Virus genome (UHGV): UHGV-1407879
Strand: one strand, 5' to 3'
Length of the DNA: 25,161 bases
Source: a virus
Positions 1,996 through 22,636 of this stretch are shown piece by piece (the first letter of the stretch is position 1; the number at the start of each line of letters is the position of its first letter). The translations under genes were made by a program, and so were the position numbers. The notes under the pieces were generated by a model. The model was not told where the DNA came from, made no database searches, and saw only the letters and a program-made list of their open reading frames with translations.

Positions 1996-2615
1996 GACTC
2001 GAAAGCGTAGCTAAATTTCATTCGCCAAAAAGCCCGATGATGAGCGACTCACCACGGGCTACGGCTTCTGACTCTCTTTCCGGTACTGATGTGATGGCTG
2101 CTATGGGGATGGCGCAATCACAAGCCGGATTCGGAATGGCTGCATTCTGCGGTAAGCATGAACTCAGCCAGAACGACAAACAAAAGGCTATCAACTATCT
2201 GATGCAATTTGCACACAAGGTATCGGGGAAATACCGTGGCGTTGCAAAGCTTGAAGGAAATACTAAGGCAAAGGTACTGCAAGTGCTCGCAACATTCGCT
2301 TATGCGGATTATTGCCGTAGTGCCGCGACGCCGGGCGCAAGATGCAGAGATTGCCACGGTACAGGCCGTGCGGTTGATATAGCCAAAACAGAGCAGTGGG
2401 GGAGAGTTGTTGAGAAAGAGTGCGGAAGATGCAAAGGTGTCGGCTATTCAAGAATGCCAGCAAGCGCCGCATATCGCGCTGTAACGATGCTAATCCCAAA
2501 CCTCACCCAACCCACCTGGTCACGCACTGTTAAGCCGCTGTATGACGCTCTGGTGGTGCAATGCCACAAAGAAGAGTCAATCGCAGACAACATTTTGAAC
2601 GCGGTCACACGTTAG
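1992..2615 (+). CDS. Q: Late-gene antiterminator Q (lambda type)
   Basis: 207 aa, essentially identical from memory to lambda Q ([27 protein letters not shown]...; zinc-binding CRDCHGTG...CGRCKG). Confidence 0.95.
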
Positions 2616-2657
2616 CAGCATGATTGCCACGGATGGCAACATATTAACGGCATGATA

Positions 2658-2700
2658 TTGACTTATTGAATAAAATTGGGTAAATTTGACTCAACGATGG
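2658..2700 (+). promoter_or_regulatory. Late promoter PR' with overlapping qut site
   Basis: -35 TTGACT (2658-2663), 17-bp spacer, -10 TAAATT (2681-2686); sequence TTGACTTATTGAATAAAATTGGGTAAATTTGACTCAACGATGG matches lambda PR'/qut from memory, immediately downstream of Q. Confidence 0.8.
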
Positions 2701-2721
2701 ATAAATGCACTCGTTAAATAA

Positions 2722-2757
2722 AGCCCTGAGTTAATAGCTCGGGGCTTTTTGCGTTTT
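2722..2757 (+). terminator. Rho-independent terminator shortly downstream of PR' (tR'-like)
   Basis: Stem AGCCCTGAG (2722-2730) / CTCGGGGCT (2738-2746) with one G-U wobble, 7-nt loop, followed by TTTTTGCGTTTT. Confidence 0.6.
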
Positions 2758-3028
2758 AAGCACGGCCTTTCTGAAAGCACATCAAACCAAATACCAGACA
2801 GACAAAAATAATCACCTTATCCGCTGTGGCTACGGTGCGGTGTGCTTTGCATAAAAGAAAACCAGCTCAATGGCTGGCTTCGTGAAAGCGGGTGGCAAGA
2901 GGTTGCGCTAACAACCTCCTGCCGTTTTGCCCGTGCATATCGGTCACGAACAAATCTGATTACTAAACACAGTAGCCTGGATTTGTTCTATCAGTAATCG
3001 ACCTTATTCCTAATTAAATAGAGCAAAT

Positions 3029-3042
3029 CCCCTTATTGGGGG
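3029..3042 (+). promoter_or_regulatory. sdi stem-loop controlling the S dual translational start
   Basis: CCCC-TTATT-GGGGG hairpin a few nt upstream of the Met1-Lys2-Met3 start of S, as in lambda. Confidence 0.6.
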
Positions 3043-3048
3043 TAAGAC

Positions 3049-3372
3049 ATGAAGATGCCAGAAAAACATGACCTGTTAGCCGCCATTCTCGCGGCAAAGG
3101 AACAAGGCATCGGGGCAATCCTTGCGTTTGCAATGGCGTACCTTCGCGGCAGATATAATGGCGGTGCGTTTACAAAAACAGTAATCGACGCAACGATGTG
3201 CGCCATTATCGCCTGGTTCATTCGTGACCTTCTCGACTTCGCAGGACTAAGTAGCAATCTCGCTTATATAACGAGCGTGTTCATCGGCTACATCGGTACT
3301 GACTCGATTGGTTCGCTTATCAAACGCTTCGCTGCTAAAAAAGCCGGAGTAGAAGATGGTGGAAATCAATAA
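3049..3372 (+). CDS. S: Holin/antiholin S (S107/S105 dual start)
   Basis: 107 aa, near-identical to lambda S from memory ([39 protein letters not shown]...); three hydrophobic segments; MKM dual-start motif. Confidence 0.95.
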
Positions 3373-3832
3373 TCAACGTAAGGCGTTCCTCGATATGCTG
3401 GCGTGGTCAGAGGGAACTGATAACGGACGACAGAAAACCAGAAATCATGGTTATGACGTCATTGTTGGCGGAGAGCTATTCACTGATTACTCCGATCACC
3501 CTCGCAAACTTGTCACGCTTAACCCCAAACTCAAATCAACAGCAGCCGGACGTTACCAGCTTCTTTCCCGTTGGTGGGATGCCTATCGTAAGCAGCTTGG
3601 CCTGAAAGACTTCTCTCCGAAAAGCCAGGACGCTGTGGCATTGCAACAGATTAAAGAGCGTGGCGCTTTGCCGATGATTGATCGCGGTGATATCCGTCAG
3701 GCTATCGACCGTTGTAGCAATATCTGGGCTTCTCTTCCGGGCGCTGGTTATGGTCAGTTCGAGCATAAGGCTGACAGCCTGATTGCAAAATTCAAAGAAG
3801 CTGGCGGAACGGTCAGAGAGATTGAGGTATGA
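3356..3832 (+). CDS. R: Endolysin R (lytic transglycosylase)
   Basis: 158 aa, near-identical to lambda R from memory ([24 protein letters not shown]...); overlaps the S stop. Confidence 0.95.
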
Positions 3833-19572: not shown

Positions 19573-19608
19573 ACGTGCATATTTAAATATTGCACGTTAC
19601 AACGTGCA
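19573..19608. promoter_or_regulatory. Operator-like triple half-site ACGTGCA / TGCACGT / ACGTGCA in divergent promoter region
   Basis: ACGTGCA (19573-19579), 11-bp AT spacer TATTTAAATAT, TGCACGT (19591-19597), TACA, ACGTGCA (19602-19608); a TTGCAA -35-like hexamer lies at 19564-19569. Confidence 0.5.
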
Positions 19609-19643
19609 TGTGTATGATTGACTTATCAATCACAACACGAGAT

Positions 19644-20657
19644 ATGCTCATGAAAAATGATGATGTTAGTGGGAAGGCCAAAGGCGGTAAGGCACGCGCG
19701 GCAAAAATGACAGCAGAGCAAAGAAAAGAATCCTCAAGAAAGGCTGTTGCCGCAAAAAAAGAAAAAGCTTTATTGCCCGTATCTGCGAATGAGGGAAAGT
19801 TAAAGATCGGTGATGCGGAATTAGATGTCGCGGTTCTCGAAAATGGACGGCGTATCATATCACAAGCTTCTGTTTTTAAAGCATTTGGCCGACCACAAAG
19901 AGGGGGTAGAGCACCTCAAGAAGAGGGTGTGATCAATATGCCCGCTTTTATGGATGCTGCAAACCTTAAAAAATATATAAATCAAGATGTTATGGATGTG
20001 ATCAATAAGGTCAAATACAAGACGATTACTGGCTCCGTCCAGGAAGGTTATGACGCATCCATAATACCTCTTGTCTGCGATGTTTATTTAAAGGCAAGAG
20101 AGGCAGGCGCTATCACCAGGCCAAACCAGTTAGAGACAGCCAAGAAAGCTGAAATTCTGGTGCGCTCATTAGCTAAAGTCGGAATAATAGCGCTTGTTGA
20201 TGAAGCGACGGGGTACCAGCGAGATAGAGAAAAAGATGCACTCGCCAAAATACTCGAGGCCTTTGTCGCAAAGGAAATTCAACCTTATATTACAACATTT
20301 CCTGCTGATTATTATGAAGAGCTTTTCAGGTTAAGGGGCTTAGAATCCCCGCCGGAAAATCCCCGCTTCCGGCCTCAGTATTTTGGCGTTTTGACAAATG
20401 ATATCGTCTACAAGAGATTGGCACCAAACATCCTTGAGGAGCTTAAAAAGCAGAACGTAAAGGCCTCAAAAGGTACAAAGTTGTTTCAGGGGCTGACGCC
20501 AAATATTGGATATCAAAAATTAAGAGAGCATCTGTCATCAACCGTTACGATTATGAAGCTATCTAACGATTATTCAGATTTTATTGCAAAAATGAATCGC
20601 CTGCATCCAAGGTTTGAGGATGTGAAAACAGACGAACTGGATGATTCAGACAAGTAA
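19644..20657 (+). CDS. Hypothetical protein with lysine-rich basic N-terminus (338 aa from ATG 19644; ORF open from 19590)
   Basis: Long ORF with own promoter/operator upstream and terminator downstream. The track start at 19590 is a TTG inside the operator; ATGs at 19608, 19614, 19644 and 19650 are alternative starts. Basic low-complexity N-terminal tail (SGKAKGGKARAAKMTAEQRKESSRKAVAAKKEK) then globular domain. Confidence 0.6.
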   Translation: MLMKNDDVSGKAKGGKARAAKMTAEQRKESSRKAVAAKKEKALLPVSANEGKLKIGDAELDVAVLENGRRIISQASVFKAFGRPQRGGRAPQEEGVINMPAFMDAANLKKYINQDVMDVINKVKYKTITGSVQEGYDASIIPLVCDVYLKAREAGAITRPNQLETAKKAEILVRSLAKVGIIALVDEATGYQRDREKDALAKILEAFVAKEIQPYITTFPADYYEELFRLRGLESPPENPRFRPQYFGVLTNDIVYKRLAPNILEELKKQNVKASKGTKLFQGLTPNIGYQKLREHLSSTVTIMKLSNDYSDFIAKMNRLHPRFEDVKTDELDDSDK

Positions 20658-20661
20658 CAGT

Positions 20662-20686
20662 AACCCACCTTCAGGTGGGTTTTTTG
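20662..20686. terminator. Bidirectional rho-independent terminator between convergent genes
   Basis: ACCCACC-TTCA-GGTGGGT hairpin followed by TTTTT on + strand; A-run on the other side; overlaps the last codons of mnt. Confidence 0.65.
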
Positions 20687-20922
20687 TACAAATCCTTCAG
20701 CGTATCAAACACCATCTTCTTAACAAGCTCTGACTGCTCATCAGCGAGTCGTTCTGCATCGTCGCGATAGCCTGCAATCGGTGATGGTTTTGATAGCGCA
20801 TCCTGAACGATTTGTAATAACTCTGAGTTCATTGACCTTCCGTTAGCCTCTGCTCTTAATTTCAATTTTTCTCTTACTTCCAAAGGCATACGGAAGTTAA
20901 AGTGCGGATCGTCTCTAGCCAT
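20671..20922 (-). CDS. mnt: Mnt repressor (ribbon-helix-helix)
   Basis: 83 aa, near-identical to P22 Mnt from memory (ARDDPHFNFRMP.EVREKLK.RAEANGRSMNSELLQIVQDALSKPSP...). Confidence 0.9.
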   Translation of the reverse strand: MARDDPHFNFRMPLEVREKLKLRAEANGRSMNSELLQIVQDALSKPSPIAGYRDDAERLADEQSELVKKMVFDTLKDLYKKPT

Positions 20923-20945
20923 GCCATCACTCCAAGTTAGTATCT

Positions 20946-21209
20946 CTAACTTTCGTCTTTATTGTTGCTATACATGCATTTCAACTTCTCAACATCATGT
21001 TCAAGATCTATCAATCGTGATGCTATAGTTGCAAGGTCTAGTGCTTGAATGTGTTTATTTTTTTCGGTCCATGCTTCAAGTGCCGCGACCATCTCAGCAT
21101 TTAATGAACGAGAATTAGCCTCAGCCAGTTCAATAAGACGTTCCTTTATCTCTACAGGAAGCCTCAGATTCACTTGAGGGTTTTTGTACTTACGATCAGA
21201 CATTGGCAC
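20946..21209 (-). CDS. Second Mnt/Arc-family ribbon-helix-helix regulator (87 aa)
   Basis: N-terminal RHH signature (NLRLPVEIKERLIELAEANSRSLNAEMVAAL) plus C-terminal helical extension as in Mnt; lies between mnt and the operator region. Confidence 0.7.
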   Translation of the reverse strand: MPMSDRKYKNPQVNLRLPVEIKERLIELAEANSRSLNAEMVAALEAWTEKNKHIQALDLATIASRLIDLEHDVEKLKCMYSNNKDES

Positions 21210-21249
21210 ATCCTGAATAATTTTTTACCACAGGATATGTAGGTATCTA

Positions 21250-21278
21250 TTGACTATCAATGCGTACCTAAATACTAT
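21250..21278 (+). promoter_or_regulatory. Pant-like promoter with overlapping operator repeats
   Basis: -35 TTGACT (21250-21255), 17-bp spacer, -10 TACTAT (21273-21278); palindrome ATTGA-CTA-TCAAT (21249-21261); direct repeats ATGCGTACC at 21260-21268 and 21281-21289. Confidence 0.55.
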
Positions 21279-21308
21279 GTATGCGTACCACATACAACGG
21301 AGGATGCA

Positions 21309-21449
21309 ATGAAGGTAAAAACACTGCGTATGCCAGAGAAGTTAGAAAAAATCCTTGAAGAGAAAGCAAAGGAAGAGTGTCGCTCATTTAGTGCAGAAGT
21401 AATTAAACGGGTGATGGACAGCCTGAAGAGAGAGGGGATAACGGTATGA
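21309..21449 (+). CDS. arc: Arc-like ribbon-helix-helix repressor (46 aa)
   Basis: Not in the ORF track (under 60 aa). GGAGG 6 nt upstream of ATG 21309; translation MKVKTLRMPEKLEKILEEKAKEECRSFSAEVIKRVMDSLKREGITV aligns with the P22 Arc strand-helix-helix pattern (FNLRWPREVLDLVRKVAEENGRSVNSEIYQRVMESFKKEG). Confidence 0.7.
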   Translation: MKVKTLRMPEKLEKILEEKAKEECRSFSAEVIKRVMDSLKREGITV

Positions 21450-21649
21450 GTAAAGAATGTTGTTTCTGCGGCATTAGCGAATCAGACGCTGATCAAACAT
21501 ACATTTACTCTAAAGAAACAGGTCGGATGCTGTGTAGTGACTGCGTGTTGGACATCATAAGATACAAGCATCTTGGATGTTCTGCCAGCATTAGCAATAT
21601 AGGTGAAGTATATGAAGGGAAAGATATAACTGATAGAGCAGAAAGTTGA
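21446..21649 (+). CDS. Small Cys-rich protein (67 aa), putative zinc-ribbon
   Basis: ATGA overlap with the arc stop (translational coupling); cysteine pattern CCFC...CSDC...C. Confidence 0.5.
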   Translation: MSKECCFCGISESDADQTYIYSKETGRMLCSDCVLDIIRYKHLGCSASISNIGEVYEGKDITDRAES

Positions 21650-21712
21650 AGCCCCAACTGCGGTAACAGTCAGGGCTTCGGTATCGTAAAACCACGCATA
21701 GGAATTAACGAC

Positions 21713-22636
21713 ATGAAAAGTATAGCAACAGCAGTATCTACTATCAATGTACCATTCCACGGCGCAGAGCTTTATGTTGTTAATCACAACGGTGAGCCGT
21801 ACACCCCAATGAAACCTATCGTTGAGGGAATGGGTATGGATTGGGCTTCACAGTTTACAAAGTTAAAACAAAGATTTGCTAAAGGTATTGTGGAAATCGC
21901 AATACCTTCAGTTGGCGGTGTGCAGAACATGATTTGCCTTGCTTTACGTAAACTGAATGGCTGGTTGCAAACCATCAGCCCTAACAAAGTCCGCCCTGAA
22001 ATCCGCGACAATGTAATCCAGTATCAAGAAGAGTGTGACGATGTGCTATACGAGTACTGGACTAAAGGCCATGTAGTTAACCCACGCAAAGCTAAAAAGG
22101 CGTTGCCGGGTAAAATCACCACTGAACAGCAGGAAGCCATTAAACAACTCGTCATGAGTCGCGGTCAGTCTCTGCCAAAAGAAAAACAGGCTAAGGCGAT
22201 GATCACCATGTGGTCGTCACTAAAATCCCATTTTGGATGTTCGTACAAAGAAATCAGTGAGGAGCAGTTTACCGAAGCACTATCACTTGCAGCTCGAGTT
22301 CCACTTGAAGGTGAGTTCATTGGCAAACAAGAGAAGAAAACCAACGAGCTTTCTGCAAAAGAAGCAAACAGCCTTGTATGGTTATGGGATTATGCCAACC
22401 GCTCACAGGCATTATTCCGCGAACTGTATCCGGCATTAAAACAAATTCAATCGAACTATTCCGGCAGATGTCATGACTGCGGTTATGAGTTCTCCCGTAT
22501 TATCGATATAGCGAGAGACGTTTTAATCAATCACACACGAGATGTTGATATCAATGAGCCAGACGGACCAACGAATCTTTCCGCATGGATGAGACTTAAG
22601 AATAAAGAATTACCTCCTTCAGTACATAACTACTGA
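21713..22636 (+). CDS. ant: Antirepressor Ant-like protein
   Basis: 307 aa in the position of P22 ant (downstream of arc, upstream of tailspike); assignment by synteny and size, not by recalled sequence. Confidence 0.55.
   Translation: MKSIATAVSTINVPFHGAELYVVNHNGEPYTPMKPIVEGMGMDWASQFTKLKQRFAKGIVEIAIPSVGGVQNMICLALRKLNGWLQTISPNKVRPEIRDNVIQYQEECDDVLYEYWTKGHVVNPRKAKKALPGKITTEQQEAIKQLVMSRGQSLPKEKQAKAMITMWSSLKSHFGCSYKEISEEQFTEALSLAARVPLEGEFIGKQEKKTNELSAKEANSLVWLWDYANRSQALFRELYPALKQIQSNYSGRCHDCGYEFSRIIDIARDVLINHTRDVDINEPDGPTNLSAWMRLKNKELPPSVHNY

Follow-up and report, generated by a model that had tools for sequence, protein, structure and literature searches.

In phage P1, the immI region carries icd upstream of the antirepressor gene ant, under the antisense control of c4. 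In the immI region of phage P22, the promoter Pant is active early after infection or in the absence of Mnt and is then shut off by Arc (PMC2629481, PMC8022706). There, the TAA stop codon of arc runs directly into AGTTGAAGCCCC..., so that the arc stop lies 4 nt from a hairpin, and ant follows this hairpin. We analysed a 25,161-nt stretch of the virus genome UHGV-1407879 (the window, by which we mean this stretch at its full length), the late region of a P22-like (Lederbergvirus) prophage of E. coli, in which a tailspike gene with a Head_binding domain and a P63C-domain gene are followed by an immI cassette (Table 1). Like P22 immI, this cassette has homologs of arc, ant, mnt and the antisense RNA gene sar together with divergent promoters, all in the same order. 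It differs from P22 in two respects: it contains two mnt-like genes and, where P22 has nothing between arc and sar, it contains an open reading frame (ORF) of 67 codons, which we call ORF X, or X. We find that X is almost certainly a genuine coding gene and that it probably encodes a divergent zinc finger resembling the zinc-binding domain (ZBD) of ClpX. The complete explanation that we prefer, in which X is a gene of a slot in the immI (Pant) operon of a CUS-3/P22-like prophage and its ClpX-ZBD-type finger acts on ClpXP docking, is tentative, and taken as a whole we hold it at somewhat less than even probability.

A preliminary description of this DNA had noted a cysteine-rich ORF that is translationally coupled to arc and, relative to P22, inserted between arc and ant, and our analysis bears out the ORF, its cysteine content, its overlap with the arc stop and the insertion. 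X encodes MSKECCFCGISESDADQTYIYSKETGRMLCSDCVLDIIRYKHLGCSASISNIGEVYEGKDITDRAES, with six cysteines among its 67 residues. Its ATG (21446-21448) overlaps the TGA stop codon of arc (21447-21449) in an ATGA, as is typical of translationally coupled genes, and the Shine-Dalgarno sequence GAGGGG is present at 21432-21437, 8 nt upstream of this ATG and within the last arc codons (..LKREGITV and stop). At the other end, the final two codons of X and its TGA are built from the conserved 3' end of sar, the last 6 nt of sar overlap the end of X, and the stop codon lies within the base of the sar hairpin, 63 nt from the ATG of ant. The 5' part of sar is complementary to the ribosome-binding site of ant while its 3' terminator hairpin corresponds to 21648-21680. 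The stem-loop GAAGCCC...GGGCTTC, which had been described here as following the ORF, is thus a real inverted repeat but belongs to sar as its terminator and is no feature of the ORF, and P22 has this hairpin without the ORF. Because the same hairpin directly follows arc in P22, we regard X as an insertion between arc and sar. The minus-strand fold of sar has an energy of -29.8 kcal/mol and a z-score of -5.1 against shuffled sequences. We also considered the hairpin as a plus-strand terminator for X and rejected it, as no T-run follows the hairpin and the z-score of the plus-strand fold is only -1.4.

Judged from the sequences at hand, the arc-to-sar interval is a recombination-exchangeable cargo slot with conserved flanks. 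The left flank, AAGAGAGAGGGG(A/G)T..GGTATGA, precedes all five types of cargo; it holds the codons for LKREGxxV at the C-terminus of Arc together with the Shine-Dalgarno sequence and the overlap of start and stop. The right flank, (A)GT(T)GAAGCCCC, is the end of sar, and all five cargo ORFs stop at the same TGA, which is built from this flank. Between the flanks are five unrelated inserts (types a to e, of which X is type a; Table 1) with 53-59% nucleotide identity to each other, which is the level of random alignments. In each insert, the +1 frame is the sole frame that is stop-free over the whole slot (60-74 codons, 36-39% GC), and the other five frames are interrupted; the chance that one named frame is open is ~1% per insert by a hand estimate from base composition (~38% GC). 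Because only the +1 frame is open across the whole slot in all five inserts, this pattern is the strongest support for X being a coding gene. A 101-aa antisense ORF (21482-21787, minus strand) was rejected as a real gene: it crosses sar and the start of ant, and the other cargo types have interrupted minus-strand frames. In a set of 5426 complete E. coli genomes, the slot is occupied by type a with an intact 5' end in 70, by a frameshifted type a in 302, by type c in 10, by type d in 23 and by type e in 51. Four of the five insert types have the motif CxFC...[IL]CxxC[VI] in common.

Several lines of evidence point to X being, probably, a divergent finger of the ClpX ZBD type, one that scores below the threshold of PF06689 and that we therefore do not file as a member of that family. 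Residues 1-40 form a putative C4 finger core with C5/C8 and C30/C33 in CCFCG...LCSDCV while residues 41-67 form a tail that is predicted to be disordered. In the alignment with E. coli ClpX, CSFCG and ICDECV lie opposite CCFCG and LCSDCV, and the signature CxFCG plus hydrophobic-CxxC-[VI] is present. The spacing of the cysteines (C5-x2-C8, 21 residues, C30-x2-C33) was judged to agree with a pattern of CxxC, a spacer of ~18-20 residues and CxxC, and all of 20 family members keep C6, C8, C30 and C33. In a profile-profile comparison with hhalign, the family made up of types a and b matched a ZBD profile of 54 distinct domains from IMG/VR loci at 93% (P 3.3e-7) with both knuckles covered. The observed score of 33.2 was reached by none of 150 shuffles of the other columns in which the four motif cysteines were kept fixed (mean 14.3, sd 3.9, maximum 27.2). 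Against the same profile, type d gave 84%, RING segments 1-5% and type e 0.2%. PF06689, which has a gathering threshold of 27 bits, was the only Pfam family found for the type b protein P0014 (13.2 bits) and the top family for type d (18.9 bits), both scores being sub-threshold; the second type b protein, P0019, scored 10.2 bits and is named 'ClpX-type ZB domain-containing protein' in UniRef.

Support also comes from the type c cargo, which occupies the same slot as X and is a canonical ZBD with 42 bits to PF06689 and matches to PDB 1OVX and 2DS5 at E 2e-7. X matches phrog_7150 (E 3e-50, 67/67 positions), and X and type c both match phrog_5259. The type c protein WP_047668240, which is found in P22-like prophages, e.g., in E. 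coli AR_0118, is similar to X in genomic position, flanks and approximate size. Unlike X, it is a canonical ZBD; it aligns with X in BLASTP over the knuckle region only (9/31 identical, E 0.024), falls into a separate 90% cluster and is uncharacterised. Compared with the ZBD of ClpX itself (PF06689; 1OVX, 2DS5-2DS8), X has the CxFCG and [IL]CxxC[VI] knuckles and the conserved Phe, and it would likewise have a single C4 site with a helix after the second knuckle. By contrast, X is free-standing without an AAA+ module, has three additional residues in the spacer, SKxT for AGP, the extra Cys6 and the 27-residue disordered tail. In the preliminary description, the protein was a putative zinc ribbon. 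That it is a zinc-binding mini-protein is very likely; the motif and the profile-profile match suggest that a ClpX-type C4 domain, i.e. a treble clef in which a helix comes after the second knuckle, is the better fit.

A number of observations weigh against this picture. C5 (21458-21460), which is the expected first ligand according to the ClpX alignment, is Tyr in 2 of the 20 family members (P0026 and P0034); the invariant Cys6 may be the real ligand or a substitute for Cys5. The spacer between the knuckles has 21 residues vs 18 in E. coli ClpX, and SKxT is found in place of AGP. X has no match in Pfam (E<=1) or NCBIfam and does not reach the gathering threshold of PF06689, a plain HMM made from the ZBD domains scores X at only 7.1 bits (E 0.11, 446 ORF segments), and sequence searches of the PDB with X or with the family profile returned weak RING proteins and not ClpX, none of them significant. 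At the level of single sequences, the family resembles a segment of the RNF4 RING as much as the ClpX ZBD (38% each). AlphaFold2 models from the single sequence and from a 4-row alignment were poor, with a mean pLDDT of 55-56, of 62-71 in the core and of <50 in the tail; the core, at this low confidence, consists of a beta-hairpin, a strand and a helix (residues 31-39), and the second knuckle leads into the helix in a treble-clef-like manner. Foldseek comparison of the X model with PDB and BFVD gave nothing significant, and in fold searches the neighbours of this poor model were generic fingers of the treble-clef, RING and ZZ kinds, the ClpX ZBD coming only at rank 34. In the slot, type e (phrog_11805) lacks a zinc motif. 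With respect to the gene, X was not called by PGAP in a 100%-identical genome stretch, and the 302 E. coli genomes with a frameshifted type a have a +1 T frameshift at codons 6-7, mostly in lambdoid prophages of O157:H7 and O145 (enterohaemorrhagic E. coli, EHEC). Finally, dN/dS is ~1.2 between two Salmonella alleles, a comparison of shallow depth that is underpowered, and the E. coli alleles of X have 2 synonymous vs 3 nonsynonymous polymorphic sites, i.e. no purifying selection at shallow depth. As for other zinc folds, a RING or ZZ cross-brace with eight ligands and two zinc ions was rejected, given that only four or five cysteines are conserved and that there is no conserved second site.

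Databases already contain X, listed as a hypothetical protein and within a PHROG of unknown function. The exact protein is found on at least 1000 public contigs, a few Salmonella among them, and its name is always 'hypothetical protein'. Among 43 loci that we fetched, X is intact in 29, which represent six alleles among P22-like prophages, and the other 14 contain a frameshifted lambdoid-prophage cassette. This frameshifted cassette sits between the gene for minor tail protein L and the K (C40 peptidase) tail gene (L003, L004 and L005, ~2020-3730), and in O157:H7 the arc gene beside the frameshifted X is truncated as well (O157:H7 and O145:H28 chromosomes sampled). The presence of the whole cassette inside lambdoid prophages shows that mnt-arc-X-sar-ant moves as a module. 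Moreover, identical X proteins occur beside arc alleles with 59-100% and ant alleles with 47-100% identity, so that X is a block which travels almost unchanged between diverse immI backgrounds. Amino-acid variants of X are mostly in the tail. The Salmonella homolog, type b, keeps the length, the start overlap and the stop within the hairpin as well as C6, F7, C8, G9, C30 and C33, and it has C5 in all but two variants. Conservation of the frame in related prophages, which had been raised in the preliminary description, therefore holds in part: the frame is intact in 70 of the 5426 E. coli genomes, in 29 of the 43 loci and in a Salmonella homolog of 25-30% identity, while it is shifted in 302 genomes.

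Two scans of GTDB species-representative genomes gave no relative of the X family, and the sole true relative in a full HMMER search of 1.84 billion representative proteins was the Salmonella type b protein P0014; the other matches were rejected as spurious multi-stretch alignments to eukaryotic TPR and Ig repeat proteins. A word-indexed protein search with X returned near-identical or truncated copies only. In one assembly (a 2.5-kb contig in the Logan collection), a 112-aa Arc-X fusion, P0001, was observed, in which the arc stop is lost via a change at the junction; it could stem from a sequencing error or reflect a rare fusion in nature. In the library of papers searched, no description of X or of any free phage ZBD in immI was found. 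This kind of domain is known, and the novelty lies in the divergent family, in its exact placement between arc and sar and in the recurrence of ZBD-like cargo there.

In our model of how X might act, it would be transcribed from Pant together with arc and ant and would be translated either by ribosomes that have finished arc and reinitiate at the overlapping ATG or by ribosomes that load at the conserved GAGGGG. Because Pant fires early or when Mnt is lost and is then repressed by Arc, X would be made only in a short burst together with Ant. The product would be a single-zinc treble-clef finger of ~40 residues with a disordered tail of 27 residues, either derived from or convergent on the ClpX ZBD. 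In ClpX, lambda O, MuA, SspB, RssB and trigger factor dock at the ZBD, whose binding pocket is lined by Phe16 of CxFCG (PMC7804408). A free look-alike of this domain might occupy ligands of the ClpX N-domain (the tails of SspB and RssB; lambda-O-type replication proteins) or might pair with the ClpX ZBD itself. ClpXP degradation would then be transiently shifted, either in favour of a phage protein such as Ant or a replication protein or in a way that blunts a ClpXP-dependent host response. We regard a role of X as such a ClpX-directed decoy or modulator as possible, though short of probable. Phage proteins that inhibit a host AAA+ protease are known in T4 PinA and T7 gp4.5, which target Lon. 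The logic proposed for X is the same, in that a small phage protein made early would modulate a protease of the host, while fold and target differ.

Among the alternatives, the one that survives best is that X is a zinc-finger mini-protein that binds not ClpX but something else, which might be Ant, Arc, the prophage repressor, a nucleic acid or a host target in defence or takeover, and that its likeness to ClpX reflects a shared treble-clef scaffold. The position of the ClpX ZBD below generic treble-clef, RING and ZZ fingers in the fold search and the equal likeness to the RNF4 RING agree with this idea, and so do the conserved SKxT and YK motifs and the variable tail that the family has as its own. 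Moreover, an operon of the Pant type, with its early burst and later shut-off, is where anti-defence or takeover genes would naturally be expected, and a dN/dS near 1 would be in keeping with an arms race. However, the ZBD profile match beats every Cys-fixed shuffle whereas RING segments do not match the profile, and a canonical PF06689 protein is found in the same slot. With respect to Arc and Ant in particular, a partner in the operon that co-evolves tightly with X is disfavoured by the pairing of identical X with widely differing arc and ant alleles, yet the Arc C-terminus and the C-terminal domain of Ant are conserved. On balance, a partner other than ClpX appears unlikely to us.

A second alternative is that translation through the slot matters rather than the product. 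Ribosomes that proceed up to the base of the hairpin would then tune the opening of the sar target and the hairpin, the translation of ant and the pairing with sar, loosely like icd of P1. In support of this scheme, the five cargo ORFs share the start in the arc overlap and the same TGA stop, the arc stop of P22 is itself 4 nt from the hairpin, one cargo type (e) is unrelated in sequence and dN/dS is ~1. On the other hand, P22 has the same geometry without an insert, the zinc-finger motif is common to four of the five cargo types despite their 53-59% nucleotide identity, and the distance of 63 nt from the X stop to the ant ATG leaves no direct coupling to ant. The likeness to P1 consists of a small ORF before the antirepressor gene in an operon under an antisense RNA. 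Unlike icd, X does not overlap ant, and sar targets the ribosome-binding site of ant and not that of X; moreover, X has no sequence similarity to any P1 protein, and tblastn against 50,697 phage records matched CUS-3 only. A role for translation without a role for the product is, in our judgement, improbable.

We consider it very improbable that X lacks a current function and persists as a decaying or neutral passenger: the excess of frameshifted over intact copies (302 vs 70 of the 5426 genomes), the truncated arc adjoining X in O157:H7, the lack of purifying selection at shallow depth and the lack of relatives in the GTDB species-representative genomes searched would fit a passenger, but the frameshifted copies belong to a single cassette, carried by lambdoid prophages in a few EHEC lineages that have been sampled heavily, P22-like prophages have six alleles with an intact frame, the exact protein is on at least 1000 contigs with varied flanks, and a homolog of only 25-30% identity retains frame, length and ligands.

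Returning to our preferred reading of X as a ClpX-ZBD-type finger encoded in immI, the surroundings of the gene are those of a P22-type immI region (Table 1): Arc and Mnt ribbon-helix-helix repressors, an Ant with P22_AR_N and P22_AR_C domains, and sar over the ant ribosome-binding site. The candidate promoters Pant and Pmnt are divergent and overlap each other (21232-21278), a layout like that of P22 immI, and the candidate Psar lies inside the first codons of ant, where it is placed for a start of sar near 21711. The nearest phage record is the E. coli K1 phage CUS-3 (97.5% over 21200-21760). In a comparison published in 2008, the ant moron of CUS-3 was apparently without arc (PMC2629481). 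Contrary to this, CUS-3 does carry a 46-aa Arc-family gene (PF03869 E 2.9e-9). This arc homolog is absent from the GenBank annotation of CUS-3, in which the region (L001 3110-3250) sits under the feature 'bsq2; boundary sequence'; X, too, is unannotated in this record, and arc and X both lie under the boundary-sequence feature. In a 100%-identical stretch of STEC346, the arc homolog is labelled 'Arc family DNA-binding protein' by PGAP.

Table 1 Features of the immI cassette in the window, cargo types of the arc-to-sar slot and ClpP-family genes at related loci
Feature	Found in	Position	Strand	Length	Basis or remark
Mnt-family gene with Mnt C-terminal domain	window	20671-20922	-	83 aa	PF11423 E 7e-19
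Arc/Mnt-family repressor gene	window	20946-21209	-	87 aa	PF03869 matches E 3e-10 and 1e-27 over the tandem pair
Candidate Pmnt	window	21260-21232	-		consensus match only
Candidate Pant	window	21250-21278	+		consensus match only
arc homolog, first gene of Pant operon	window	21309-21449	+	46 aa	PF03869 E 2.9e-9
ORF X (cargo type a)	window	21446-21649	+	67 aa	open reading frame; phrog_7150
sar antisense RNA	window	21644-21711	-		Rfam RF00262, 85.7 bits (gathering 43), E 5e-18, full length 1-68
ant antirepressor homolog	window	21713-22636	+	307 aa	P22_AR_N E 3e-44, P22_AR_C E 9e-29, phrog_245 E 5e-97
Candidate Psar	window	21719-21747	-		TTGATA, 17-nt spacer, TG-TATACT; 10/12 consensus, extended -10; consensus match only
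Cargo type b	Salmonella (P0014, P0019)			68 aa	25-30% identical to X
Cargo type c	E. coli AR_0118			60 aa	'ClpX C4-type zinc finger protein' WP_047668240
Cargo type d	E. coli AVS0453			74 aa	CDFC...ICNKCI
Cargo type e	E. coli DP051 and E15	L159 2197-2418; L161 2086-2307		73 aa	phrog_11805, unknown function, no Cys motif
ClpP-family gene	L071-L076	~2967-3504	-		PF00574
ClpP-family gene	L008, L011, L015, L019, L022, L024, L029, L030, L032	1956-2489			PF00574
ClpP-family gene	L026	757-1107			PF00574

Some further observations concern the mnt side of the cassette. Two Arc/Mnt-family genes are arranged in tandem (20671-21209) vs a single mnt in P22, and only the distal one (20671-20922) has the PF11423 domain. 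Upstream of mnt, a variable region contains a 355-aa ORF (19590-20657) with a P63C domain (PF10546, E 4e-22), for which the listed start is TTG. Between this gene and mnt is a perfect 8-bp GC-rich hairpin (20662-20681) with a T-run on the plus strand only, which looks like an intrinsic terminator; the sub-threshold Rfam match of this hairpin to the 3' end of sroH (23 bits vs a gathering score of 80) is taken to be terminator similarity only. In other prophages, the position upstream of mnt is occupied by Panacea-domain, PIN, HicAB or ClpP-like genes. With gene content that varies in this manner among prophages, the region upstream of mnt is a second cargo region.

A 178-aa ClpP-family gene is located directly downstream of mnt in 6/6 Salmonella type b loci and in 10 of the 29 E. 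coli loci with intact X while it is absent from the window. It matches PF00574 (E 1e-11), and its best solved relative is PpClpP1 (PDB 9UXT; E 1.4e-34). This non-canonical ClpP is truncated at its N-terminus, assembles into mixed rings with canonical ClpP and does not itself bind ClpX (PMC12900304). The co-occurrence of the ClpP-like gene and X is circumstantial support for a ClpXP link and may reflect linkage only. Viral contigs often carry small stand-alone ZBD genes (35 of 74 loci encode proteins of <=150 aa), and none of these 74 other viral ZBD genes has an ant, arc, mnt or ClpP-like gene beside it, so that the link to immI is specific to the slot cassette. It is tempting to speculate that the slot has repeatedly captured mimics of the ClpX N-domain, in four sequence-unrelated lineages, and that these, with the N-terminally truncated ClpP paralogue that is often present beside mnt, make up a toolkit that rewires host ClpXP during the Pant burst, although we consider this broader scenario doubtful.

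P22 immI is a textbook circuit, and yet X is missing from the CUS-3 record and from the RefSeq annotation. The conserved flanks of the slot provide a simple handle for mining more small early phage genes. If its product does mimic the docking domain of ClpX, X would offer a compact and natural means of modulating ClpXP specificity and would link antirepressor-mediated immunity to host proteolysis. Finally, if the slot has indeed captured ClpX N-domain mimics repeatedly, its cargo would represent an undescribed class of phage host-takeover or anti-defence factors that are tied to antirepressor control.

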